Positions 6,762 through 60,481 of a stretch of DNA of 64,000 nucleotides are shown in pieces. The stretch is taken from assembly GCA_039815185.1 (NCBI GenBank), contig JBCBZT010000026.1:44205-108204 (forward strand). The letters run 5' to 3'. The notes beneath the pieces are model-generated. The model had not been told where the DNA came from and ran no database searches. It saw only the letters and a program-made list of their open reading frames with translations. The position numbers were made by a program, and so were the translations under genes. The number at the start of each line of letters is the position of its first letter. Position 1 is the stretch's first letter. This DNA is from Cyanobacteria bacterium P01_A01_bin.123 (GTDB lineage: Bacteria; Cyanobacteriota; Cyanobacteriia; Phormidesmidales; Phormidesmidaceae).

Positions 6762-7190
6762 GCTTAGCCAGAAAGCACCTCTAAATTGGCTCAAAAAAAT
6801 ATATTCATAATGATTGAGGAACTCTCAGAGCTTTTCTATTTCAAATACATGCCACTTCACTTCAGTCAATAGAGAAAAGCTCGAAAAAGCGTTCAATTTG
6901 AGTTTTAGAGAATCCGTCATATGGCTTAGTCAATCCCCGAATCCGCTGGGAATGATCAGATTGGAGCACCTTTGGTATAGGTTCAATCTCATTCTGGATT
7001 TTTCATAAATTTTTGATCTAATTAAATTTTGGCGATTTTCAAAGATCAGAAATATGAGTCTATATAAACGTGAGACCATGCTTTAACCCTGGGCATCAAC
7101 TTTAGTTCTTACAGGATGTCGAGAAGTTTATGCTCTTCAAAATCATCAGGCTGTGGTTTGTTTCTAATTAGGTTGTTGGACAATGGGGAA

Positions 7191-10100
7191 ATGGATTCAT
7201 TTAAGCATAATAATCAGTTTGAAGGCGTACATGTCTGGTTTGAACAGCAAGTTGATAAGGCTCCAGACGCGATCGCTATTGTGTCTGGCATGCAGCAATA
7301 TAGCTATCGAGAACTTAATCACCAGGCGAATCAATTAGCAAGATATCTAAAAAAGTTAGATGTTAAGCCAGAAACACTGATCGGCATCTGCGTAGAGCGA
7401 TCGCCAATTATGATAGTTGCGCTATTAGCCGTGCTAAAAGCTGGTGGTGCATACGTCCCTATTGACCCGACGTACCCTAGAGAAAGAGTCACTCTGATGC
7501 TGGAAGACTCACAGGTACCAATCGTTCTAACCCAGCAACAACATATCTCCAATCTGCCTACCCCCAAAGCCACCATTGTTTGTCTAGATACAGACTGGCC
7601 GGTCATTGCTGAAGAAAAAACAGCCAATTTAGACACAGCAATTACTAGCGACAATTTGGCCTACATCATCTATACCTCCGGCTCTACAGGTAAACCGAAA
7701 GGGGTAATGATCGAGCACCACGCTTTGGCAAATTTCGTTCAGGCGATTGGTCGGAACTACGAGATCATCGCAACTGATCGGGTCTTGCAATTTGCGTCTG
7801 TCAGCTTTGATGTAGCAGTTGAAGAAATCTTTGTCACCTTAGCCAAAGGGGCGACCCTGATCCTACGCTCTCAAGACATGCTGCGGTCTATTCCAGCATT
7901 TCTGGAAACCTGTAAAGCATGGGACTTAACAGTTCTGAATTTACCCACTGCCTTCTGGCACAAAATTTGTGCTGAATTACCCCAGACCGAAATTCCAACC
8001 TGTGTAAGGCTAGTCGTCATTGGTAGCGAACGTGCCATACCCCGTTGGCTGACGATCTGGCAGCAGCATGCCCCAAATCATGTTCGTCTCATCAATGCCT
8101 ATGGTCCAACTGAGGCTACCGTAGGGTCAACTTTATGTGATTTAGCTGGCCCCCATGCGGTAGACACAACCGATAAACGGATACTACCTATTGGTAAACC
8201 GATTGACCACGTACAAATTTACGTCCTGAATCCAGACCTCCAGCCTGTTGGGGTTGGCGTCACTGGTGAGTTATACATTGCTGGGGCAGGGCTAGCTCGT
8301 GGGTACTTAAATCGCCCTGATCTGACTGCCGTTCGCTTTATCTATATGCAATGTGGAGAGGGGCAAATTCGTCTCTATAGGACGGGTGATTTAGTTCGTT
8401 ATCGCGAAGACGGTCACCTCGAATTCCTTGGCCGAAGCGATCATCAGGAAAAAATTCGCGGCTTTCGCATTGAGTTAAATGAAATCGAAACCATCCTGGA
8501 ACAACATTCAAACGTACAGCAGGCGCTGGTTCTGGCGCGGGAAGATGTTCCAGGGGATAAGCGGCTGGTAGCCTATATCGTACTGGCCTCATCCGTATCC
8601 ACTGGCAACCTGCTTGATAAACCAAAGCATCGTTTGGTACCCCATCTCCGCTCTTATCTGCGCGGCAAACTACCCAGTTACATGGTGCCTTCATCATTCG
8701 TGTTACTGAATAGTCTGCCTCTCAGTCCAAATGGCAAGGTTGATCGGCGAGCCCTACCGGCACCTACTGCAGCACGTCCTGCCCTAGATGAAATCTATGT
8801 TGCCCCTTGCACACCACTAGAGCAAACATTGGCTCAACTTTGGTCAGCAGTATTAGGCATCGCTGAAATTGGGGTGAACGACAACTTTTTTGAGCTAGGG
8901 GGTGACTCGCTGCAAACAACCCAGCTCATTTCTCAGATTGAAAAGAACCATCAGGTCGTTATCCCGCTTCTTGACTTTTTCAAAATACCAACCATTAGGG
9001 GACTGGCCATCCTCATTCAGGAAGTTCGGACAGATCAGCAAGTATCTACTGAACATATGACTCTGCCGCAACTGCAAGCACAGGTTGTGCTAGAGGCATC
9101 TATTCAACCGCAATACCTTGCGGAAACAGCAGCCGAGCCCAAAGCCATTTTTCTAACAGGTAGTACTGGATTCGTCGGAGCATTTCTCCTACATGAACTC
9201 CTGCAGCAAACCCAGGCCAAGGTTTATTGCCTGGTGCGGGCTCGACATTTCTCCGAAGTCCATCAAAAAATCTGCACCACCCTAGAACGCTACTTTAATC
9301 AAGTCGAGACCTACTATTCACGTATTATTCCAGTTATTGGCGACCTAGCTCAGCCCCGATTAGGACTAACAGAGCGACGGTTTCAAGCGTTAGCTGACTC
9401 GATTGATGTCATCTATCACTGTGGTGCGAATGTCAATTTGCTTTATCCTTACACAGCCTTGCACAGTACCAATGTAATCGGCACCCATGAGATTTTGAGG
9501 CTGGCAAGTTACGGTCAACCCAAACGTCTCCACTATCTCTCCACCCTGGATGTCTTTGAGTCAGTGGCGAAAACAGGGGTAAAAGTTTTCCATGAGAATG
9601 ACAGCATTGATCGCGGTCAGGGCATCTCTAGCGGCTATGCTCAGAGCAAATGGATTGCCGAGCAGCTCGTGAAGCGAGCTGCCGAACGAGGTTTATCAGT
9701 CTGCATTTATCGACCGGGAATGGTAACAGGGCATAGTCAGAGCGGTCACTCGAACACCGCCGACGTGCTCTGTCGTTTTGTGAAGAGTATGATCCAACTC
9801 CGGCAAGCTCCAGATTTAGATCTGATGCTAGATATGACCCCAGTGGATTATGTGAGCCGGGCAATTGTGCAGCTTTCGTTACAGTCTGAACTATCAGGAC
9901 AAACCTTTCATCTGGTTAACCCTAACCCTCTAGCCTTATCCCAGCTCGTAAATGTGCTATGTACCAGAGGCTTCCCGATTCAGCGGGCTCCCTACTTGCA
10001 GTGGCAGGCCAAGCTCAAACTAGAACCCAATGCCCTCAGTCCGTTGGCTGCGCTCTTAACACAAGCAAACGAAGACGATCAGCGCACTGGCCTAGAAATG

Positions 10101-10280
10101 TGGCTTGGCGGCAGCGATCAGTTTGACTGCACCAACACACACCAAGGCTTACAAAACTCTATTACCTGTCCTTCTGCCAACCCAAAGCTAGTAGACACCT
10201 ATCTCAACTATTTCATCCAGAGTGGCTTTATCCAGGCTACATCTGCTTACTCCGTCTCTACTTCCTTACCCAGTGAATGA
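7191..10280 (+). CDS. Monomodular NRPS-like enzyme: adenylation, thiolation, thioester reductase (A-T-R); no condensation domain
   Basis: A-domain cores YTSGSTGKPKG, NAYGPTE, GELYIAGAGLARGYL, YRTGD, KIRGFRIEL, NGKVDR; carrier motif FFELGGDSL; reductase motifs LTGSTGFVG and GYAQSKW. Start 7191 or 7116. Confidence 0.95.
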   Translation: MDSFKHNNQFEGVHVWFEQQVDKAPDAIAIVSGMQQYSYRELNHQANQLARYLKKLDVKPETLIGICVERSPIMIVALLAVLKAGGAYVPIDPTYPRERVTLMLEDSQVPIVLTQQQHISNLPTPKATIVCLDTDWPVIAEEKTANLDTAITSDNLAYIIYTSGSTGKPKGVMIEHHALANFVQAIGRNYEIIATDRVLQFASVSFDVAVEEIFVTLAKGATLILRSQDMLRSIPAFLETCKAWDLTVLNLPTAFWHKICAELPQTEIPTCVRLVVIGSERAIPRWLTIWQQHAPNHVRLINAYGPTEATVGSTLCDLAGPHAVDTTDKRILPIGKPIDHVQIYVLNPDLQPVGVGVTGELYIAGAGLARGYLNRPDLTAVRFIYMQCGEGQIRLYRTGDLVRYREDGHLEFLGRSDHQEKIRGFRIELNEIETILEQHSNVQQALVLAREDVPGDKRLVAYIVLASSVSTGNLLDKPKHRLVPHLRSYLRGKLPSYMVPSSFVLLNSLPLSPNGKVDRRALPAPTAARPALDEIYVAPCTPLEQTLAQLWSAVLGIAEIGVNDNFFELGGDSLQTTQLISQIEKNHQVVIPLLDFFKIPTIRGLAILIQEVRTDQQVSTEHMTLPQLQAQVVLEASIQPQYLAETAAEPKAIFLTGSTGFVGAFLLHELLQQTQAKVYCLVRARHFSEVHQKICTTLERYFNQVETYYSRIIPVIGDLAQPRLGLTERRFQALADSIDVIYHCGANVNLLYPYTALHSTNVIGTHEILRLASYGQPKRLHYLSTLDVFESVAKTGVKVFHENDSIDRGQGISSGYAQSKWIAEQLVKRAAERGLSVCIYRPGMVTGHSQSGHSNTADVLCRFVKSMIQLRQAPDLDLMLDMTPVDYVSRAIVQLSLQSELSGQTFHLVNPNPLALSQLVNVLCTRGFPIQRAPYLQWQAKLKLEPNALSPLAALLTQANEDDQRTGLEMWLGGSDQFDCTNTHQGLQNSITCPSANPKLVDTYLNYFIQSGFIQATSAYSVSTSLPSE

Positions 10281-11677
10281 CAATGAAAACCATGCTGTCA
10301 GGATCAAAGGTTCTTGCAGAAATTAAGTCTTGCACCATGCTGTCTATTCCCCTAGCAGCCGCCCAAGTTACCGACTCTATCACTGGTTTTGTCGACACCA
10401 TGATGATGGGTTGGCTAGGAAGCCAATCGCTGGCTGCTGGGGCACTAGGCGCGATCTCGTTTAACTATTTATTGTGGATTACCACATCTATTGTCTCTGC
10501 TGTGAGCCCGCTGACAGCGCAAGCCTATGGCAAGGGAAATCCCCAAACCGTAAGGCAGATTTTACAGCAAGGGTTATGGTTAGCAAGCATCTTGGGTGCT
10601 CCCATAACTTTGCTACTTTGGCATGGCGGCACAATCCTGCATTATCTAGGACAAGACCCCAATACGATTGTCTTTACGGAACAATATCTGAAGGCGATCG
10701 CTTGGGGATTTATCCCTGCCATCGGCTTCTCAGTTTTAAAGGGGTTTGTCTCTGCGCTCTCCCACCCACGGGTCGTCATGCTGATGGTGATTTTGGGCGT
10801 TTTGCTTAACATCTGTGGCAATTATGTGCTGATGTTCGGCAAGTTTGGCCTACCAGCTCTAGGGTTAGCTGGTATTGGCTGGGCCAGCACCTTATCACTG
10901 TGGAGCACATTTCTCCTAATGCTGTTATATGTTTCTTGCCGCAAGTACTTTGCCGTCTTCAAACTTTGGTCTAAGCTACAGTTCAACCATCGCATATTGA
11001 GTGAACTATTGCGGGTTGGCTTGCCAATTGGTGGGTTAATGTTAGTCGAAGCTGGTATCAGTGCAGTGGGTACCTTTTTGGCCGGACAATTAGGCACTAC
11101 GTCTCTAGCAGCTCACCAAATTGCCTACCAAACAGCTGGCATTATTACCTATCAGGTTGCCAGTGGCATTTCTATCGCTACCACCATACGCGTAGGCCAG
11201 TTCGTAGGTCAAAATAAGGTTCAAGCGAGCCGTTTAGCCGGATTTGTCGGCATTGGCCTAGCTGGAGCCTGCATGGGGGTATTTAGTCTAGCGTTTGTGC
11301 TAATTCCCAATCAAATTGTGGGGCTATATCTGGATGTGTCTCAGCCTGATACGGCCGATGTTGCAGCCCTTGCTAAAACCCTGCTAATCATTGCTGCACT
11401 GTTTCAAATGATTGATGGGGCTCAAGTCACCGCTGCTGGGGCACTGCGAGGTCTAAAGGATACCCAAGTACCAATGCTCATTGGAATCATGGCTCATTGG
11501 GTCATTGGCCTACCTGTTAGTTATGTGTTGGGTATGCAGTTGGGTTTCGGTGTAGTCGGGCTTTGGTTAGGCGTTGCCACAGGACTAAGCATTGCTGCCA
11601 TTGTCCTCATCTGGCGTTTTAAGACAGAATCTTGGCGAGCTATTCGTCATAGTAATCATGTCTTACGAAACTGTTAG
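10277..11677 (+). CDS. MATE family efflux transporter (NorM-like)
   Basis: About 12 hydrophobic segments; FVDTMMMGWLG, LAAHQIA, GALRGLKDT motifs; overlaps the NRPS stop (ATGA). Confidence 0.93.
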   Translation: MTMKTMLSGSKVLAEIKSCTMLSIPLAAAQVTDSITGFVDTMMMGWLGSQSLAAGALGAISFNYLLWITTSIVSAVSPLTAQAYGKGNPQTVRQILQQGLWLASILGAPITLLLWHGGTILHYLGQDPNTIVFTEQYLKAIAWGFIPAIGFSVLKGFVSALSHPRVVMLMVILGVLLNICGNYVLMFGKFGLPALGLAGIGWASTLSLWSTFLLMLLYVSCRKYFAVFKLWSKLQFNHRILSELLRVGLPIGGLMLVEAGISAVGTFLAGQLGTTSLAAHQIAYQTAGIITYQVASGISIATTIRVGQFVGQNKVQASRLAGFVGIGLAGACMGVFSLAFVLIPNQIVGLYLDVSQPDTADVAALAKTLLIIAALFQMIDGAQVTAAGALRGLKDTQVPMLIGIMAHWVIGLPVSYVLGMQLGFGVVGLWLGVATGLSIAAIVLIWRFKTESWRAIRHSNHVLRNC

Positions 11678-40225: not shown

Positions 40226-40996
40226 TCACGGAGACATCTGGGCAAAGTTCATGCGGCTGAGGAATGCCCGCAAGCGATCGCTATTCGGATGAATCAACAC
40301 TTCACGGGGATCGCCTTCTTCTTCAACCTGTCCCTTATTTAGAAACATCACTCGGTTTGCAACATCCCTGGCAAACTGCATTTCGTGGGTCACCACCACC
40401 ATGGTCATGCCCTCCTCTGCGAGTTGCTGCATCACCATGAGCACTTCACCCACCAGTTCTGGATCTAAGGCACTCGTGGGTTCATCAAACAAGATTACAT
40501 CGGGCTTCATACAAAGCGCACGGGCGATCGCCACCCGTTGTTTTTGTCCCCCAGATAGCTGATCGGGATAGGCATAAGCTTTTTCTGAGAGCCCCACTTT
40601 GTTAAGGAAAAAGAGGGCGCTTTCCCGGCTCTCTTTTTTGGAGCATTTCAACACTTTTTGCGGTGCCAAGCAAAGGTTTTCAACCACCGTCATGTGGGGA
40701 AACAAATTGAACTGCTGAAATACCATCCCCACTTTGGCCCGCAGCTGTAACAAATTCCGACGGCTTAGATCGGGCTTCGATAAATCCAGCCCATTGACAA
40801 TCAGCTGTCCACCGTTGATCACCTCCAGCCGATTGAAACAGCGTAGCAGCGTGCTCTTGCCGCACCCAGAGGAACCAATAATAGAAACCACTTCCCCCCG
40901 GTTAATTTGACCGCTGATGCCCCGCAATACCTGAAGTGTGCCAAAGTTCTTCTGAAGATTGCGAAATAAGATGGCGGGCATATCGGTCTGCATCAT
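40226..40996 (-). CDS. Polar amino-acid ABC transporter ATP-binding protein (BgtA/GlnQ-like)
   Basis: [27 protein letters not shown]. Confidence 0.93.
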
Positions 40997-41252
40997 TACC
41001 TGCTTGAAAATGCTGAATTGTGGACGTCAGCATATCATCTCGCCTAAGGCTTAGCAGTATCCGCTTTAGCTTTCCTCATGGATTGGGGTTGGGGGTTGTT
41101 GTGCTTCATACAGTCTCTCAACAAAGATTTTGTATACTGGAATGCTTAGACCCAATATCAAATTGGCGTTATGGCATCGAATTCTGCCATAACGTCCCAA
41201 GCGAGAGGTATCTGGGCCTTGTGTGGTGAACTTTAGAACACTTGAACCCCCC

Positions 41253-42107
41253 ATGGTAATTACTCGGTCTCAATTCATTCGTAACTTAGCCCTTGGCCTC
41301 AGCGCGTCTTTAATGTTAGCCGCCTGTGGTGGGGCAACCAGTGATACTGCCAGCGAACCTACCGATGGTGCTGACGCCCCAGAGGCCACGGAAGCCCCAG
41401 AAGAAGCGACCGGGGGTGTCCTGACAGTTGCAACCGAACCAGCCTTTCCCCCCTTTGAATCTCAGGGAGACGATGGCGAACTTGAGGGATTTGATATTGA
41501 CTTGATGAACGCCATTGGCGAAGCGTCAGGGTTAGAAATTCAGTACGAAAGCTTGCCTTTTGACGGCATTATTCCGGCCCTCCAGGCCGGCACAGTTGAT
41601 GCCGCCATTAGCGCCATGACCATCACTGAAGAACGGTCTGAAACCGTAGACTTTTCTCGCCCTTATTTTAAGGCGGGCTTAGCGATCGCAGTGGCTGAAG
41701 ACAATACCGATATCGCCACCTTAGATGACCTTGAAGGCATGCAGATCGCCGTACAGATCGGCACTACCGGGCAAGGCCAAGCTGAGGAAATTCCGGGTGC
41801 TGAAGTCAGCACCTTTGACTCTGCCCCCTTGGCACTGCAAGAACTGGCCAATGGCAATGTTGACGCCGTGATCAACGATGCCCCGGTTACCCTAGACGCG
41901 ATCGCCTCTGGCAATATCAGCGGTCTAAAAGTCGTCGGTGAACTAGTCACCGAGGAGTTCTATGGCATTGCTTTGCCCCAAGGTTCTCCCAACGTTGCCA
42001 TCGTCAACGATGCCCTCAGTACGATGCTTGAAGACGGCACCTATGCTGAAATTTATCAAAAATGGTTTGGTGCTGAACCCCCTGAACTACCTGAATCAGC
42101 ATTTTGA
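41253..42107 (+). CDS. Basic amino-acid ABC transporter substrate-binding lipoprotein (family 3)
   Basis: Lipobox LAAC; TEPAFPPFE, GFDIDL, MTITEER, QIGTTG. Confidence 0.92.
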   Translation: MVITRSQFIRNLALGLSASLMLAACGGATSDTASEPTDGADAPEATEAPEEATGGVLTVATEPAFPPFESQGDDGELEGFDIDLMNAIGEASGLEIQYESLPFDGIIPALQAGTVDAAISAMTITEERSETVDFSRPYFKAGLAIAVAEDNTDIATLDDLEGMQIAVQIGTTGQGQAEEIPGAEVSTFDSAPLALQELANGNVDAVINDAPVTLDAIASGNISGLKVVGELVTEEFYGIALPQGSPNVAIVNDALSTMLEDGTYAEIYQKWFGAEPPELPESAF

Positions 42108-52705: not shown

Positions 52706-53767
52706 CTAACTTTCGGTGCTGCGATCGCGCTTTAACCCCAAACCGACTAACCCCAGCGTCAATAGCCCAGCCACGACACCCGGTTCAGGCACGCTGGCCT
52801 TGAACAACAAACCGATGGGGCGTTGCAAGACGGGTGAGGTGTCTGCAATCAAGATCCGCTCTCCGGTTGTTGTATCAAACTTCAATAGAGACCCGATGGC
52901 TGTTGCCCCCGTATCAAAGCCCACAGTATATAGCTCGTCTTTAGGACCAAACGTCAGACTGCCGATAAAGTTGCTGCTCGGTATTGTCTCGGTGTAGTTG
53001 GTGTCAAAAATATCCAGCTCTGCACCACTCAAAAAGTCGTAGCGCCGAATCCCATTGGCAAAGTCACTCACGTACAAATCACCATCCTGAGGACCAATCG
53101 CCAGTCCCAAGAAACTGACAAAGCCAAAACTGCTCGGAAAGGGCGTGGGTTGGGGCACAAACACCTCGCCCATGCCGGTTACGATGTCGTACCGCAATAT
53201 CTGGCTATCGAAGAGAAATTCGATCTCGCCGTCTGCATCAGCAACACTACCTTGGGTCGTCACATAGAGTTGGCCGTCAGGCCCAAACAATAGGCCATTG
53301 GGGCCGTTCAGCCCTGCGCTGGTGCCATCACCCTGAGCAAAGACATCGACAAATTCACCGGTGAAGGCGTCGTAGCGCAAAATTTGATCAGAGCGGAAGC
53401 TGCTGACATAGAGCAGCCCATCCGGGCCAAAGGCCAAACCATAGGGGCGGAGTAAGCCACCCCCCGAGGCAAATTTATCAATCAGCGCCCCAGTCTGGCT
53501 GTCAAACCGATAGATGGCTGAGGTCTCTCGGGTTGTACCACTACTGATATATAAATCGCCATCTGGCCCATAGGTGAGGGTATCTGGACTTTCAAACCCC
53601 GCAAACGGTGAAATGAACTCACCCAAAAAATCACCTGTCTTTTCATCCAGCGCCACGATATTGTTACCTGTCGTGTTGCCAATCAAAATTGCAGCTTGAG
53701 CAGGCAGCAAACTCATGCTGCCCAGTGTAACCACTGACGATAGTCCAAGAACGGCGGTAATTCTCAT
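52706..53767 (-). CDS. PEP-CTERM surface protein with beta-propeller (NHL/Vgb-like) repeats
   Basis: Signal peptide, repeated L.FGPDG.LYVS units, C-terminal VPEPG-TM-KRDR. Confidence 0.88.
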   Translation of the reverse strand: MRITAVLGLSSVVTLGSMSLLPAQAAILIGNTTGNNIVALDEKTGDFLGEFISPFAGFESPDTLTYGPDGDLYISSGTTRETSAIYRFDSQTGALIDKFASGGGLLRPYGLAFGPDGLLYVSSFRSDQILRYDAFTGEFVDVFAQGDGTSAGLNGPNGLLFGPDGQLYVTTQGSVADADGEIEFLFDSQILRYDIVTGMGEVFVPQPTPFPSSFGFVSFLGLAIGPQDGDLYVSDFANGIRRYDFLSGAELDIFDTNYTETIPSSNFIGSLTFGPKDELYTVGFDTGATAIGSLLKFDTTTGERILIADTSPVLQRPIGLLFKASVPEPGVVAGLLTLGLVGLGLKRDRSTES

Positions 53768-53951: not shown

Positions 53952-55319
53952 ATGATGTCTAAGAACAACAGACCGATTCAACACGTTGCTATTGGGGTTG
54001 GATTAGCGGTTTCTATAGTGCTCCAAGCGCCTGCTGCTTTTGCGGGTTCTCTCGTTTTGACGGGGGGAAGCTGGGCATTTCCCGGTAGCGGTGGAGAGGC
54101 TGAAGACTACGGCATCTCTATCTATGAGGAAATTGTGGAACTGGCAGGCGGTATCGACAACGCCAAAATTGGGATTATCTCCACCGCCAGTTCTAATCCT
54201 GAACGATCGGCAGGATTCTATCTCGAAGATTTTGACATCCTTTATGGAGATGCCGCAGATGTAGCGTGGATTCCGATCACGCAGGATACCTGCGACACGT
54301 TTAAGAATGACAGCACCTCCGCGATCGCAACCCAAATCAAAGACCGCAACAGCTTTATTTTTACGGGCGGCGACCAGTCATTCATTACAGACTGTTTCTT
54401 CAATGAAGACCCGATTGCCCAAACCCGCACCAACACAGCGCTGATCGAAGCCCTGCGAGAGCAGTTTGACGAGGGGGCCGTGATTGCAGGCACCAGCGCC
54501 GGTACCGCAGTGCAACCCGTTGAGCCAATGATCACCAATGGCGAAACCTACGAAGCTTTGCGGGACGGAACCTTCAGTTTTGTCGGCAGCCCACCGTTTG
54601 ACAACACGCTCTACTACAATCCGTTGGGGGGATTGGGCTTTTTTGAATATGGCTTAATCGACAGCCACTTTAGTGAACGGGGACGGCAAGGCCGACTCAT
54701 TCGGTTGGCCGCAGATTTGGGCGTTGAAACCACCTATGGGGTGGATGAAAATACTGCCCTGGTTGTGACTGGAACGGGCACACCTGATGTGAACTTTGAA
54801 GTCTTGGGTGAAGGGGGGGTGTTTATTTCTGATCTGGCCAAAGCTGAAGTGGGTGAGAAAAATGGCTATTGGACGATTGCTGGGGCAGCGGCAACCTATC
54901 TAACCGAAGGCGATCAGTTCAACCCGCTGACGAAAACGGCCTCCTTTGGCGACAAAACCCCTTTGACTGGACAATCGCAATCGGTGCCGCTGACGGAAAA
55001 TATCTTTAGCTATTTTGATGATGATCTGGGGGACTGGACTGACCCGCGAGCGTTTACCGAAACTGCGATCGCGCTGTTTAATAGCGAAGCTGACACGGTT
55101 TTTGGTGAAAGCTTTGAAAGTGATCCTACCTATGGGGTTACCCTAACGAAACTGCTCGCATCACAGGGATTTTCTGGCCTAGATAGTCAGGGCAGCTTGA
55201 AAGTCTCGTTTGAAAATTTAGCCATTGATATTGAGCCTGTGCCAGAGCCGGGAACAGTTTTAGCGCTGCTGGGGTTGGGCATTTTGGGCCTTGGCATCAA
55301 GCTGAAGCCAAAAATTTAG
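53952..55319 (+). CDS. Secreted cyanophycinase (peptidase S51) with PEP-CTERM anchor
   Basis: Signal peptide ending AAFA; FTGGDQS, GTSAG (Ser), IDSHFSERGRQGRL (His), GVDENTAL (Glu); C-terminal VPEPG-TM-KLKPK. Confidence 0.9.
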   Translation: MMSKNNRPIQHVAIGVGLAVSIVLQAPAAFAGSLVLTGGSWAFPGSGGEAEDYGISIYEEIVELAGGIDNAKIGIISTASSNPERSAGFYLEDFDILYGDAADVAWIPITQDTCDTFKNDSTSAIATQIKDRNSFIFTGGDQSFITDCFFNEDPIAQTRTNTALIEALREQFDEGAVIAGTSAGTAVQPVEPMITNGETYEALRDGTFSFVGSPPFDNTLYYNPLGGLGFFEYGLIDSHFSERGRQGRLIRLAADLGVETTYGVDENTALVVTGTGTPDVNFEVLGEGGVFISDLAKAEVGEKNGYWTIAGAAATYLTEGDQFNPLTKTASFGDKTPLTGQSQSVPLTENIFSYFDDDLGDWTDPRAFTETAIALFNSEADTVFGESFESDPTYGVTLTKLLASQGFSGLDSQGSLKVSFENLAIDIEPVPEPGTVLALLGLGILGLGIKLKPKI

Positions 55320-55378
55320 TTTCCTATATCAACCCTATAGTTTTCATAGGGAATTACGCCGTAGTTTTAGAAAATAGG

Positions 55379-55420
55379 GTAGCAACGAGTACTTTCCTGG
55401 TTTCCTCCTATCGATATGCT
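55379..55420 (+). promoter_or_regulatory. Canonical NtcA-activated promoter GTA-N8-TAC-N22-TAN3T
   Basis: GTAGCAACGAGTAC at 55379-55392, 22-nt spacer, TATGCT at 55415-55420. Confidence 0.7.
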
Positions 55421-55602
55421 GACCCTTTAAAGTGTTGTTTAGGGTTGAGAAAAAATAATCTATTTGACTTTTAACTTAGCTCAGGTCACATCCGATTTAA
55501 AGCTTGAATTTAAACACTCCGCTCTAAAGTTTTTTTAGGGCTAGTTCAAAGTGTGAGTGTTGACCTTTTTCACTGTAGATAGATAAGGACTCATGCAGTT
55601 TT

Positions 55603-56403
55603 ATGAAACGGAAGCGCTTTTTAGTTATAACGGCTGCGGCTGCTCTTTTTACCTTGGGTGTCGCGACCGCCTGCACGTCTCCCGGTGAGAACGGAGCAGC
55701 CGAGACAGAGGGCGATCAGGTTTTGGTGATGGCCACCTCTGCGGACTATCCCCCCTATGAGTTTTATGAAACCGCTAGCGGTGACGGAGAACCGATCGGG
55801 TTTGATATTGACATTGCCAAAGCAATTACAGAAAAGCTGGGATATACCCTAGAGATTGAGGATATGGAATTTAACGGCATCATCCCGGCGCTACAAGCCG
55901 AACGGGCTGATTTTGCCATGGCGGGCATGACCCCCACTGAGGAACGCCTGGAAAGCGTCGATTTTTCCCAAATTTACTACGACGCCAAAAACACGATCAT
56001 TTCAGCGGCAGGGGCAGGGTATGCCAGCTATGAAGATTTAGAAGGAAAAACGGTGGGTGTCCAGCTCGGCTCGATCCAAGAAGGAGAAGCCAAGGAGCAA
56101 GCGGAAACGATCAGCATGACAATTGAACCGCGAAATAAGGTTAGTGAATTGATTCAAGAAATCAAGGCGGGGCGTTTAGATGCTGCGATTGTAGAAGACA
56201 CCGTGGCCAAGGGCTACGTTCAGAACACTGAAGGTCTGGAATTTACCACCATAGAGATTGAAGGGGTCTCTGGTTCCGCGATCGCCTTTCCAAAAGGGTC
56301 TCCGCTGGCGGCCGAATTTGATCAGGCACTCACCGAAATGACTGAAAGTGGTGAGCTCGACGAGCTGATTAAAATCTGGTTTGAAGATTACTACGACCAG
56401 TAG
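55603..56403 (+). CDS. Polar amino-acid (arginine-type) ABC transporter substrate-binding lipoprotein
   Basis: Lipobox ATAC; ATSADYPPYEF, GFDIDIA, GMTPTEER, VQLGSIQ. Confidence 0.9.
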   Translation: MKRKRFLVITAAAALFTLGVATACTSPGENGAAETEGDQVLVMATSADYPPYEFYETASGDGEPIGFDIDIAKAITEKLGYTLEIEDMEFNGIIPALQAERADFAMAGMTPTEERLESVDFSQIYYDAKNTIISAAGAGYASYEDLEGKTVGVQLGSIQEGEAKEQAETISMTIEPRNKVSELIQEIKAGRLDAAIVEDTVAKGYVQNTEGLEFTTIEIEGVSGSAIAFPKGSPLAAEFDQALTEMTESGELDELIKIWFEDYYDQ

Positions 56404-56475
56404 ATTTGACAGTAGATCTGTGCGTGGATAAGGGTTTGCCGTTGTCTTTGATCGGAGTTGAATGTGTTGTTCCCA

Positions 56476-57153
56476 ATGCCGCTGATTGCGGCTTTAGATT
56501 TAGATTTCAGCCGGGTGCTGCCATCCCTACCGTTTATCTTGGGGGGGTTGTGGGTCACTATTCAGTTCACAGTCCTATCTGCCCTACTGGGGTTTATTTG
56601 GGGCACCATCCTGTCGTTGTGCAAGATTTCTAGTTTTAAGCCGCTGTACTGGTTTGGCACGATATACACGTCTATCTTTCGCGGTACACCCTTACTAGTG
56701 ACGCTGTCGCTAATTTACTTTGCCACCCCCCAGCTGACCGGGCAGGATATTTCTGGATTTCAGGCTGGGGTGATTACCTTTGCGCTTAACTCCGGGGCTT
56801 ACATTTCTGAGGTGATTCGAGCCGGTATCTTGGCGGTCAATAAAGGCCAACGGGAAGCGGCGGTTTCCCTGGGGGTACGCTACCGTCCAATGATGTTGGA
56901 CATTATTTTGCCCCAGGCAATCAAAAACATTTTGCCCGCCTTGGTGAATGAATCCATTGCCTTGCTCAAAGATTCCACGCTGGTCTCTGTGATTGGGGCT
57001 CAGGATTTACTGCGTCGGGCCCAAATTGTGGCGGCTGAAAAATATGTCTATTTTGAACCCCTGTTGATTGTGGCGGTCGTGTATTACATCATTGTGATGG
57101 TGTTGTCAGTCTCGGCAACGTTCCTAGAGAGACGTTTACAAAAGAGTAGTTAA
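56476..57153 (+). CDS. Polar amino-acid ABC transporter permease
   Basis: [31 protein letters not shown]. Confidence 0.93.
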
Positions 57154-57155
57154 CG

Positions 57156-57926
57156 ATGTCTGAATCACCTTTCCCTCAAGCCGCTGAGCAATCTGGTACG
57201 GTCGCCATTCAAGTCCGCCATCTGGCTAAATCCTTTGGGCCCCTCAATGTCTTAAAAGATATTTCAACGGATGTGGATAAAGGGGAAGTGGTGGCGATGA
57301 TTGGCCCCTCAGGGTCGGGGAAATCTACGTTTTTGCGGTGTATTAATCTGCTGGAAATGCCGACGTCTGGCAGCATCCAAATCAACGGCATGGAAATCAC
57401 CCATCAAAAAACAGATGTGATGGAGATGCGTCAACATGTGGGAATGGTGTTTCAGCACTTCAATTTGTTTCCCCATATGACGGTGCTGCAAAACATTACG
57501 TACGCTCCAGTCCGGGTTAAAAATGTGGCTAAGGCTAAGGCTAAGGCCAAGGGCATGGAATTACTAGAAAAGGTTGGTCTGGCTGAAAAGGCAGATGTGT
57601 TTCCGTCTAAGTTGTCGGGGGGGCAAAAGCAACGGGTCGCGATCGCCCGTGCCCTAGCGATGGAACCCGAAATTATGCTGTTCGATGAACCCACTTCGGC
57701 CCTCGATCCAGAGATGGTAAAAGAGGTGCTAGACGTGATGAAAGATCTAGCCGTGAGCGGCATGACAATGGTGATTGTCACCCACGAGATGGGGTTTGCC
57801 CGAGAAGCCGCAAACCGAATTTTGTTTTTAGATCAGGGCTATGTGGTGGAAGATGCCACCCCGGAAATCTTTTTTAGCACGCCCAAAAGTGAGCGTGCCT
57901 GCCAATTTCTTGAGAAGGTTTTGTAG
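57156..57926 (+). CDS. Polar amino-acid ABC transporter ATP-binding protein
   Basis: [27 protein letters not shown]. Confidence 0.94.
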
Positions 57927-58083
57927 CGCGATTGAAACAACACGACTCATCCCTGGCGAGGTTATTAATTTATCGGGCGATCACCTCGAATTTTATATCA
58001 GGAATATTTCCCCGATTGGGTACAGTGGGTTCAAGAGAAGTGGTTTAGGAAAATTACTTTCTTCTATCAGAAACAGAATAGTC

Positions 58084-58364
58084 AAGCCAATTCGAATCCA
58101 GACCGATGTCCTCAGTGATCACTGGGTGACCATTCTCATTACCGAAATGGGGCGGGTATTCCTGAAGCCATTGGCAGTCAAGTGTTTGATCCATTTTTTA
58201 CAACTAAGGTTGTTAGTAAAGGGACAAGTTTAGGCTTATCCATTAGCTACCAGATCATTGTTGAAAAGCATTGTGGCAAACTATGGTCTAACTCTAAGTT
58301 AGGGCAGGGAACTGAATTTGTTATTCAAATCCCGGTTAACCAAATGATGTCTAAGGCAGCATAG
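58084..58364 (+). pseudogene. Remnant of a histidine kinase HATPase C-terminus
   Basis: IRIQT..WVTILIT, frameshift near 58145, then NGAGIPEAIGSQVFDPFFTTK..KGTSLGLSISYQIIVEKHCG..GQGTEF; no N-terminal part. Confidence 0.85.
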
Positions 58365-58429
58365 GTTCAGACATCATGATCCGGTTAACCAAATGATGTC
58401 TAAGGCAGCATAGGTTCAGACATCATGAT
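58332..58429. repeat. Perfect 49-bp tandem duplication with internal inverted repeat
   Basis: 58332-58380 equals 58381-58429; each unit contains ATGATGTCT...AGACATCAT. Confidence 0.95.
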
Positions 58430-60481
58430 TAAGTGCACCGGATCGAGCCGCACATTCCAGGGAAAGGGACGGCTTCTCAGCAGTTCCCACTTTTCTCGAT
58501 AGACTTCCGCATGTAGGTGATAGTCATGGGGAGATTTGGGTTCACTGTGAAGCTTGATGTAAAGCGTGACCCGGTGCTGGGTTTCACTAATCATGGCTAA
58601 CCAACCGGGGAACGTATTGCTCTGGTTGGCTCGCTTCAAAAACTGGATATGGTGAGCACGAATACCCAAATAGGCGATATTAGGCGGTATCGGATCAATC
58701 ACTTCCAGGCGGCACCCCCAATCTAGTCCCTCGACATGCTGAGCATCTGCCCGACGACCGCGGGAAAAGTTTTTGCATTCCGTCACCTGGGCGACCTCAA
58801 AGGTGGGTGGGCGCTCAAAGATATCTTCTTTGGTACCTTCCGCCAGAATTTCGCCATTGGAGAGGACTAACAGATTAGAACAGACGCGATAGGCTTCCTC
58901 CAGTTTGTGGGTGATGAATAGAGTGACGCCCTTATAGGTGGAAAGTACGTCGATTAACAACTGTTCGATTTGGCTACGTAGGTAAGTGTCGAGGGCAGAC
59001 AGCGGCTCATCCAACAGTAGAATATCTGGCTGAATCGCTAGGGCTCGGGCTAGAGCCACCCGCTGTTGTTGCCCCCCGGAGAGCTGATGGGGATAGCGAT
59101 CGCCCAAACCCGATAGCTCCATCATGTCAAGATAGTTGATCACTTGAGCGACTCGCTGGTCTTTGGGAATAGCCTGCATGCCAAAAGCGATATTTTGCGC
59201 CACAGTCAAATGAGGAAATAGGGCGTAATTTTGGAAAACAAGGCCAACTTTGCGATCGCGGCTAGGGACATTCACCCCAGTTTGAGAATCAAACAAAACC
59301 CGACCATTCAGCACAATTCTGCCTTGGGATGGGGTTTCCAACCCAGCCACGCAGCGCAGCGTCATACTTTTACCTGAGCCCGATGCCCCCAACAAACCCA
59401 ATGGTTCATGCAGGGTTCTAAACTGAGTTTTGAGGTGAAATCCTGGCACCTGTTTTTCGATCTGCACGACCAGTTCAGCAGCGGAGGGGTTCTGGATTGA
59501 TCGAGTCAGTGGGGTAGTTTCTAGGCTTGAATGGGTTGAGTATTCAACACCGCCTTGGTAGATGGGTTGCCAGTCCATGCCTGCAACTGGTGATGGCTTA
59601 TCTGCATTAGGGGTGCCCACTAGCGCCGGAACTTTATCACTGTCCATTGAAGCTGAGGATGACGCCCTGTCAACGCCAGTGAATGGCCCGCTCAGATCGG
59701 GTTGGCGTCTAGCTAAACCCGTTGGAAAATGCCAAAATTGCTGCCTTATGAATTTGCCAAAGTAGACCCGATTAAACCCTTGCTTCGTCAAAATATTAGG
59801 GTTAACTTTCGTTTGCGACCGAGGCCGGTTGCCGTAACCAATCCCGGTAATCACTGCTAAAGAAACGGCCACCATCAACAAAACCCAAGCCAAGGCCACC
59901 GTCATTCGTCCTGCTTCTGCGGCAAAAAAGATTGCAATGGGAATCGTCTGAGTAACGCCGGGAATGCTGCCGCCGACCATGAGCGTCGCGCCAAATTCTC
60001 CTAGAGCCCGGGCAAAGGCCAAAATTGTGCCCGCCAGTACCCCCGGCCAGGCTAATGGCAGTAAAACCTGCCAAAAAATTCGCCATTCTGATGCACCTAG
60101 GGTGCGGGCAGAGCTCACCAACGTCAGGTCAATCTGCTCAAACGCACCCAGCACGGTTTTGTACATCAAGGGGAAGGCAACCACCGTGGCAGCAATCACG
60201 GTAGCGGGCCAGGTGAAGATGATTGAGATGCCTAATGCGTTGAGTAACTGACCGACCGGACCGTTTTTGCCCAGCAGCAGCAACAGCAAAAACCCCACGA
60301 CCGTTGGCGGTAGCACTAGCGGTAGGGTGAGAACGCCGTCGATTAAGCTGCGGGCCCGACCGCGATAGGTCATCATCCAGCGGGCTGCGGTAATCCCTAA
60401 TAGAAACGCCAGTAGGGTAGCCGTCAATGTAGTTCTTAGGGAAATCCACAGCGGCGTAAAGTCTTCGGGGATAGCGATCAT
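58400..60481 (-). CDS. modBC: Fused molybdate ABC permease/ATPase (ModB-ModC)
   Basis: LPLVLPPTVVG and ARALGEFGAT (ModB); GASGSGKS, LSGGQQQR, LLDEP (ModC). Confidence 0.93.
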   Translation of the reverse strand: MIAIPEDFTPLWISLRTTLTATLLAFLLGITAARWMMTYRGRARSLIDGVLTLPLVLPPTVVGFLLLLLLGKNGPVGQLLNALGISIIFTWPATVIAATVVAFPLMYKTVLGAFEQIDLTLVSSARTLGASEWRIFWQVLLPLAWPGVLAGTILAFARALGEFGATLMVGGSIPGVTQTIPIAIFFAAEAGRMTVALAWVLLMVAVSLAVITGIGYGNRPRSQTKVNPNILTKQGFNRVYFGKFIRQQFWHFPTGLARRQPDLSGPFTGVDRASSSASMDSDKVPALVGTPNADKPSPVAGMDWQPIYQGGVEYSTHSSLETTPLTRSIQNPSAAELVVQIEKQVPGFHLKTQFRTLHEPLGLLGASGSGKSMTLRCVAGLETPSQGRIVLNGRVLFDSQTGVNVPSRDRKVGLVFQNYALFPHLTVAQNIAFGMQAIPKDQRVAQVINYLDMMELSGLGDRYPHQLSGGQQQRVALARALAIQPDILLLDEPLSALDTYLRSQIEQLLIDVLSTYKGVTLFITHKLEEAYRVCSNLLVLSNGEILAEGTKEDIFERPPTFEVAQVTECKNFSRGRRADAQHVEGLDWGCRLEVIDPIPPNIAYLGIRAHHIQFLKRANQSNTFPGWLAMISETQHRVTLYIKLHSEPKSPHDYHLHAEVYREKWELLRSRPFPWNVRLDPVHLIMMSEPMLP

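Follow-up and report, generated by a model that had tools for sequence, protein, structure and literature searches.

In cyanobacteria, cyanophycin is regarded as a store inside the cell that feeds heterotrophs only after lysis, and a kit for scavenging it has, to our knowledge, so far been described only in nonphotosynthetic microbes. The present analysis concerns a 64,000-nt stretch of DNA from Cyanobacteria bacterium P01_A01_bin.123 (the window, to which all coordinates refer; host genome G000, 8.09 Mb), where a predicted exported cyanophycinase gene is followed by the genes of a polar amino acid ATP-binding cassette (ABC) importer. Judged from sequence, it is moderately probable that the two constitute a two-unit cyanophycin-scavenging cassette in a filamentous cyanobacterium that itself produces cyanophycin.

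In the available portions of the literature, scavenging loci are assigned to heterotrophs and intracellular CphB to cyanobacteria (PMC10206079, PMC9974463, PMC11890772, PMC9576798, PMC7367855). The closest described enzymes are CphE of Pseudomonas anguilliseptica BI (Q8KQN8) and CphEal of P. alcaligenes DIP1 (available sections of PMC3235067), with which the window enzyme has in common a mature length of about 400 residues, a Sec signal, the catalytic triad, the substrate pocket and the C-terminal extension. Whereas heterotrophs secrete CphE into the medium, the window protein carries a PEP-CTERM tail and belongs to a cyanophycin-making phototroph. CphB (3EN0) has the same catalytic fold and residues, but is short and cytoplasmic. 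The full-text literature search returned no cyanobacterial report of such a cassette, although most subscription papers lay outside the search and an earlier mention is possible; it likewise returned no paper joining cyanophycinase with PEP-CTERM. The five supplements of PMC10206079 hold no cphE, Leptolyngbya or Phormidesmis entry, and, of three "cyanophycinase" rows in the PMC12188702 supplement, the two covered are both short, CphB-sized proteins.

The four open reading frames lie where the earlier note on this DNA had placed them, all on the forward strand: the peptidase at 53952-55319, the substrate-binding protein at 55603-56403, the permease at 56458-57153 and the ATPase at 57156-57926. 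Origin from a contaminant contig (G000 is 5.99% contaminated) was excluded by the 108 kb length of the contig and its neighboring ribosomal-protein genes. The GC content of the locus (0.49-0.51 vs 0.50 for the genome) and the presence of orthologues, 67-83% identical, in 11 relatives also count against contamination.

The CphE-type enzyme and its predicted export

On the basis of Pfam, an alignment to CPHE_PSEAG and a structural model, the 455-residue product of the first gene (counted from the ATG) is predicted to be a CphE-type cyanophycinase (peptidase S51) composed of a signal peptide, a catalytic domain, the CphE C-terminal extension and a PEP-CTERM tail. The match to Peptidase_S51 (PF03575, E 2.3e-9) lies above the Pfam cut-off. 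Alignment with CphB locates the active site at 54366-54749, with the motifs GGDQ (Q142), GTSAG (S182, 54495-54497), DSHFSERGRQGR (D237, H239 at 54666-54668, R243, R245 and R248) and DENTA (E266, 54747-54749); the residues for catalysis and substrate binding in CphB and CphE are those given in the available sections of PMC3235067. The Ser-His-Glu triad, with its GxSxG, DxH and DE motifs, is represented by S182, H239 and E266. Five of the six pocket residues are kept, CphB Gln101, Asp172, Arg178, Arg180 and Arg183 corresponding to Q142, D237, R243, R245 and R248; the sixth, CphB Gln173, is S238 in the window enzyme and Thr in CphE. Identity to P. anguilliseptica CphE (CPHE_PSEAG) amounts to 37% over 395 columns, the C-terminal extension included. 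The structural model (pLDDT 87.1) has the CphB fold, matching 3EN0 with Z 29.0 (rmsd 2.5, 258 residues aligned), vs Z 14-21 only for PepE-type peptidases. Among the 120 homologues listed of 297 found, GxSAG occurs in all 120 and the Asp-His-Arg-Arg motif in 116, and several are already labeled "cyanophycinase" in databases. The predicted enzyme is, by its sequence, a CphE and not a CphB.

It could be argued that the protein is no cyanophycinase in vivo; its substrate in the sheath might be a different beta-aspartyl or polyamide compound, or it might have little activity and be a surface protein comparable to other PEP-CTERM proteins tied to exopolysaccharide. This explanation would account for the TIGR02069 (cyanophycinase equivalog) score of 111.8 bits, below the cut-off of 126.6 (CphE itself was not scored), and for the title "pseudo-CphB" of the nearest solved chain, found by both sequence and Foldseek. 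That chain, reportedly inactive, carries the same motifs, and the motifs therefore do not prove activity. The catalytic domain has also been lost in several Thermoleptolyngbya records and in the genome G167. The explanation is nevertheless improbable, considering the domain layout and identity shared with a characterized CphE, the five retained pocket residues together with a Ser where CphE has Thr, and a structural match to CphB far above that to the PepE type. The Thermoleptolyngbya remnants (P0246, P0248, P0250, P0253, P0254) keep the last 175-194 residues with the PEP-CTERM tail and stand beside full-length members of the cluster; the similar truncated remnant of G167 lies at G167:C1:5447111-5447623.

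Residues 300-430 (54849-55241), modeled alone, reached a pLDDT of 94.4, the piece including strands of the catalytic domain. The best match to a solved structure had Z 4.7, with no Foldseek match at E 0.001 and no usable Atlas match, from which neither a known nor a new fold follows. As a guess, the C-terminal part of CphE might serve as a binder of the insoluble polymer.

In a quick tree of the homologues (row L091 left out for its short coverage), 31 rows fall into one clade with support 100, cyanobacterial wherever a taxon is given; a few other, tail-less cyanobacterial CphEs lie outside it. The nearest named relatives are titled Phormidesmidales or Phormidesmis, and the carriers of the PEP-CTERM enzyme include Leptolyngbya sp. 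FACHB-671 and FACHB-261, Oscillatoria sp. FACHB-1407 and, by cluster membership, Oculatella sp. FACHB-28. A cyanobacterial subclade devoid of signal peptide and PEP-CTERM (P0036, P0037, P0040, P0049, P0039, L081, L082, L084, L086) is Ser/Thr-rich at the N-terminus, and four of its proteins carry PF13448 at the C-terminus, which suggests another export route. Three bivalve homologues (P0108, P0109 and P0115, from Saccostrea, Magallana and Sinanodonta) are full-length with intact motifs, two of them on chromosome-scale contigs, and fall among bacterial CphEs; a transfer of the CphE gene to cyanobacteria-eating filter feeders is possible on these grounds.

The export signals were located at both ends of the protein. 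Residues 1-31 (53952-54044) form a Sec-type signal peptide, assigned by eye and hydropathy, with a basic N-terminus, a hydrophobic core and a probable cleavage after AFA. Its end coincides in the alignment with the start of the mature region of CphE; the cleavage site of CphEal is HA-AG (available part of PMC3235067). Such an N-terminal Sec signal, joined to the long form with the C-terminal extension, is the arrangement of the extracellular CphE type. Hydropathy in 19-residue windows shows hydrophobic stretches at residues 8-38 and 433-453. The PEP-CTERM sorting signal (55239-55316) consists of VPEP, a hydrophobic helix and a basic tail, and scores 24.5 bits against PF07589 (cut-off 20.7). 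Cyanoexosortase B is encoded in the host genome (TIGR04156, 413.8 bits, cut-off 300), so that PEP motif, transmembrane helix, basic tail, N-terminal signal and cognate exosortase, the marks of an exosortase substrate, are all present. An exosortase-family match was obtained in all 11 genomes with the enzyme, one of them partial. Among the 120 listed homologues, a PEP-CTERM-like tail is found in 34 of the 35 best and 44 of the 74 best, vs 2 of the last 46.

Collectively, these features make it well supported that the enzyme is exported and processed by the exosortase, and likely that it is anchored at the surface. The claim of a surface-anchored cyanophycinase in the earlier note thus holds for the signal peptide, the PEP-CTERM signal and the exosortase; the final surface location is likely rather than established, surface, sheath and periplasm all being possible for PEP-CTERM proteins according to the literature. 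A periplasmic enzyme could salvage short cyanophycin fragments leaked by the host's own cells, with the importer recovering them and no scavenging from the community; the host is indeed a producer, with cphA1 and nifH, and Microcoleus vaginatus releases aspartyl-arginine (PMC4595634). This possibility is very improbable: no export route for cyanophycin is known (available part of PMC9974463), a leaked dipeptide would need no cyanophycinase, and 12 of Nostoc punctiforme's 35 PEP-CTERM proteins have been detected in its exoproteome.

A divergent gene on the minus strand upstream of the enzyme (52706-53767) encodes an NHL beta-propeller protein, ScyE/ScyF-like at scores under the cut-off, which bears a signal peptide as well as a VPEP tail. 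An NHL/PEP-CTERM gene lies within 6 kb of the enzyme in four relatives, in two of them after rearrangement. Membership in the cassette was not supported for this gene and that of an alpha/beta hydrolase, which are present in 36 and 59 of the 150 family genomes, respectively, mostly without the enzyme.

Linkage, ligand and probable nitrogen control of the importer

The three genes downstream of the enzyme belong to the Pfam families SBP_bac_3, BPD_transp_1 and ABC_tran, which together indicate a polar amino acid importer with one permease gene. The first product is a family-3 substrate-binding lipoprotein (Cys24; PF00497) with an arginine-binder-like pocket, the best NCBIfam model, TIGR01096, remaining below its cut-off and the nearest solved chain being 4YMX (E 5e-57). 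The permease matches PF00528 and, above cut-off, TIGR01726, and the ATG at 56476 is a possible start; the ATPase is of the GlnQ type (PF00005; PRK09493, E 4e-99).

The scavenging interpretation draws on the linkage of these genes to the enzyme. The enzyme gene is rare, occurring in 10 of 150 family genomes, 11 of 172 order genomes and, in a truncated form in one case, 2 of 400 genomes sampled from the phylum. The importer lies directly 3' of it in 8 of the 11 enzyme-bearing genomes, these eight being thinly spread over five genera with differing flanks. The survey of gene neighborhoods proposed in the earlier note therefore bore out a conserved linkage. The binding protein has matches in 39 of the 150 family genomes; eight copies, 77-84% identical, all stand directly downstream of the enzyme. 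Outside the genera g17 and g19, the genomes with the enzyme and those with the importer are exactly the same, 8 of 107. In the tree, all linked binding proteins group in a single clade (support 98), nearer to copies from other families than to those of g17 and g19, and consequently the cassette behaves as a single inherited or transferred unit.

Comparable neighborhoods were observed among the best 80 of 510 cphE loci across taxa. The importer adjoins the enzyme in 9 of the 27 cyanobacterial loci, eight of which are the cassette clade already counted, the ninth being a Xenococcaceae locus (L083) with a divergently placed, fused importer copy. In Tumebacillus lacus (L090), genes of this importer family stand directly upstream of cphE (56% for the binding protein, 67% for the permease and 72% for the ATPase), three actinomycete cphE loci have polar amino acid ABC genes upstream, and a family-3 binding protein directly precedes cphE in 35 of 37 Pseudomonas-type loci. 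In the genome G277, a distant S51 gene (TIGR02069, E 2e-11) is followed by a fused importer copy. As a side observation, an M20 peptidase accompanies cphE and amino acid ABC genes in Tumebacillus (L090:2165-3328) and Nonomuraea (L130:4793-5905) and is a candidate beta-Asp-Arg dipeptidase.

The importer carries an exact NtcA class II promoter, GTA-N8-TAC-N22-TATGCT, at 55379-55420 on the forward strand. The pattern occurs once in the window, 21 times in the genome (both strands) and in 0.055% of random 420-nt windows. All eight linked relatives have an equivalent, GTA-N8-(T/C)AC (TAC in four, CAC in four) with TAN3T 22-23 nt on, and when the window is aligned with seven of these relatives over a section trimmed to the motif, GTA, AC, TA and T do not vary, the mean column identity being 62%. 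Both the spacing of GTA-N8-TAC about 22 nt before TAN3T and the conservation among orthologues are those of the NtcA class II type. For the relaxed pattern, the frequency is 1.1% among random windows of 420 nt and 2.1% among AT-rich windows of 280 nt; a chance motif was excluded by the number of sites per genome (21) and by the conservation in all eight linked relatives. Downstream genes were scanned at 11 of the other 20 genomic sites, chosen by eye. Genes for nirA (ferredoxin-nitrite reductase), a NarK nitrate/nitrite transporter, an ammonium-transporter (amt) fusion, an aliphatic amidase and uroporphyrinogen methyltransferase were found above cut-off; a further site precedes a UrtA-like binding protein below cut-off, and two of the 11 gave no match. 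The pattern thus marks nitrogen genes in this genome, and the promoter points to NtcA control of the importer.

The earlier note had described an NtcA-activated importer. This is sustained, but does not extend to the enzyme: because the promoter lies between the peptidase and binding-protein genes, it can drive only the transporter. As for a terminator behind the enzyme gene, the hairpin there has z -1.0 in the window and is strong in only two of six relatives.

As to what the binding protein may take, its closest solved counterparts are 4YMX, AncQR, 4I62 and 6SVF, whose entry titles do not give ligands and which are presumably arginine binders. The motifs SADYPPYE, F90, GMT, R115, QxGS and E198, the presumed pocket positions, align with 4YMX, 4I62 and 6SVF, while all NCBIfam scores remain under cut-off; one fused homologue bears the JGI name "arginine/lysine/histidine". 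From the sequence, the pocket looks like that of an ordinary arginine binder.

Several observations weigh against a dedicated cassette. No linked-specific change was found at the presumed ligand positions when 9 linked copies were compared with 21 unlinked ones; 22 fixed differences lie elsewhere and are unmapped on a structure. The other 31 family copies of the binding protein, 54-62% identical and from g17 and g19, are unlinked where inspected, and 37 of 400 phylum genomes contain the importer family. All eight linked cases go back to a single ancestral cassette and so do not count as independent. Three of the 11 enzyme-bearing genomes have no linked importer: G019 has a 57% identical copy on another contig, G049 is 78% complete with the gene at a contig end, and the best match in G568 is 35%, its enzyme being flanked by a sodium/solute symporter and an NhaC/ArcD-like carrier. 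The importer is not nearby in 18 of the 27 cyanobacterial cphE loci among the best 80, some of them on short contigs. GTA-N8-TAC also precedes 18 of 21 unlinked importer copies, which makes NtcA control a property of the importer that is older than the cassette. Finally, no NtcA site was found upstream of the enzyme in the window, and a class II site is found there in one of 10 family loci.

These observations would also fit a real exported cyanophycinase next to a general NtcA-controlled importer of arginine or basic amino acids, with no dipeptide uptake and a linkage that reflects one old co-transfer; the dipeptide would then be split by heterotrophic neighbors or enter via another carrier. 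In its favor are the wide occurrence of importer family and NtcA site without the enzyme, the unchanged presumed pocket residues, the fact that G019, G049, G568 and most other cyanobacteria keep the enzyme but have no importer beside it, and the separate promoters of the two units. This alternative is considered rather unlikely, taking into account that both genes occur in the same 8 of 107 genomes, that cphE repeatedly adjoins amino acid transporters in distant lineages, and that dipeptide import by an arginine ABC system has a precedent (available part of PMC9974463).

Identity with Bgt, a basic amino acid importer of the same ABC family, was also considered but not supported. Like Bgt of Anabaena PCC 7120 (available part of PMC4500139), the window importer belongs to TC 3.A.1.3, and many cyanobacterial homologues of its binding protein are fused to the permease as in BgtB; unlike BgtB, which uses the N-II cluster ATPase, its family has an ATPase of its own, adjacent in 28 of 29 phylum loci, and its genes are split. 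A stand-alone fused gene (L193) that fits the bgtB description in the same source groups with another window binding protein (41223-42107). The importer is thus probably not Bgt, as judged by description rather than against a named BgtB sequence. The window region 40226-42107, with this second polar amino acid binding protein and a divergent ATPase, is likely the Bgt equivalent, its probable permease lying on contig C43.

Among other features of the window, the region 57980-58430, read by eye, holds a degraded fragment of a histidine-kinase ATPase domain and, at 58332-58429, a tandemly duplicated segment of about 49 bp across the end of a fused modB-modC gene. Farther away (7116-11677), a single-module NRPS-like gene with a terminal reductase-like region, read from the translation, is followed by a MATE-like exporter.

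Proposed scavenging route and comparison with known systems

The host genome encodes cphA1, cytoplasmic cphB, iaaA, argZ (above cut-off) and nifH. One cphB gene, upstream of cphA1, is divided between the ends of two contigs (C31 and C83); a second copy is found on C43. The single IaaA-type asparaginase-2 gene, on contig C92, has no leader, and none was seen by eye in iaaA-family genes of 15 loci; searches with TIGR01975 and PF04952 returned neither iadA nor CphZ-type dipeptidases in this genome. All 10 tested relatives have cphA1 and iaaA. A link to diazotrophy as a general trait was discarded, nifH scoring above cut-off in only 4 of 11 relatives. Since cphA1, cphB, iaaA and argZ are all present, the internal cyanophycin cycle is already there and the window gene is an extra. 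The host is therefore regarded as a producer and, probably, also a scavenger of cyanophycin.

In the proposed mechanism, the peptidase would leave the cell by Sec export, be held by its PEP-CTERM tail, undergo processing by cyanoexosortase B and be kept at the envelope or sheath. There it would trim extracellular cyanophycin, which may come from lysed neighbors or from the filament's own dying or dead cells, to beta-Asp-Arg, and the tether would hold the product close to its producer in a mat. Under nitrogen shortage, NtcA would turn on the downstream importer, which may take arginine-type ligands; uptake of the whole dipeptide would be of most use, given that no signal peptide is seen on the one isoaspartyl dipeptidase detected. 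We infer import of beta-Asp-Arg from the missing iaaA leaders and from P. aeruginosa, where the arginine ABC importer AotJQMP is required for growth on this dipeptide (available part of PMC9974463). IaaA would then split the dipeptide, after which ArgZ could free its nitrogen or CphA1 store it again.

The scavenging interpretation is thus upheld with respect to the exported CphE type, the linkage, the NtcA promoter and an internal route through iaaA and argZ; nitrogen control of the enzyme is not upheld, no NtcA site lying upstream of it. In its full form, namely that some mat-forming cyanobacteria draw on the nitrogen reserves of dead cyanobacteria, their own kin among them, by means of an exosortase-tethered CphE and an NtcA-induced beta-Asp-Arg importer, it is put forward tentatively as a serious possibility. 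If true, no such pathway for scavenging cyanophycin would have been described in cyanobacteria before, and the enzyme would join the few PEP-CTERM proteins to which a definite catalytic role in nutrition can be given. A producer that recaptures cyanophycin outside the cell would close a nitrogen loop within mats and compete with heterotrophs. The locus also offers a testable enzymatic role for a PEP-CTERM protein, most of which are uncharacterized, and a candidate cyanobacterial carrier for beta-Asp-Arg.

Of the systems already described, the arginine importer locus aotJQMOP-argR of P. aeruginosa (available part of PMC9974463) resembles the window in tying a family-3 arginine ABC importer to the use of the cyanophycin dipeptide. 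Unlike the window, it has the dipeptidase CphZ, no cyanophycinase and ArgR control, and PF04952 has no match in the window host. The binding proteins beside Pseudomonas cphE are 23-32% identical to that of the window. The cyanophycin utilization loci (Ben Hania et al., strain L21-Spi-D4, via PMC10206079; Sharon and Schmeing 2023; available parts) likewise cluster a cyanophycinase with an amino acid transporter, as do the window and 8 of the 11 relatives. In those published loci, as far as the available parts describe them, the genomes lack cphA1 and the isoaspartyl dipeptidase is in the cluster, whereas here cphA1 is present in G000 and 10 of 10 relatives, iaaA lies elsewhere on C92, and none of the 80 cphE loci has an iaaA match. 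The window cassette adds an exosortase signal on the enzyme and an NtcA promoter on the importer. Consequently, the cassette would work like a cyanophycin utilization locus minus two published features, the clustered dipeptidase and the cphA1-less host; the mechanism is familiar, and what is new is its occurrence in such a host, together with the tethering by exosortase and an importer under NtcA control.

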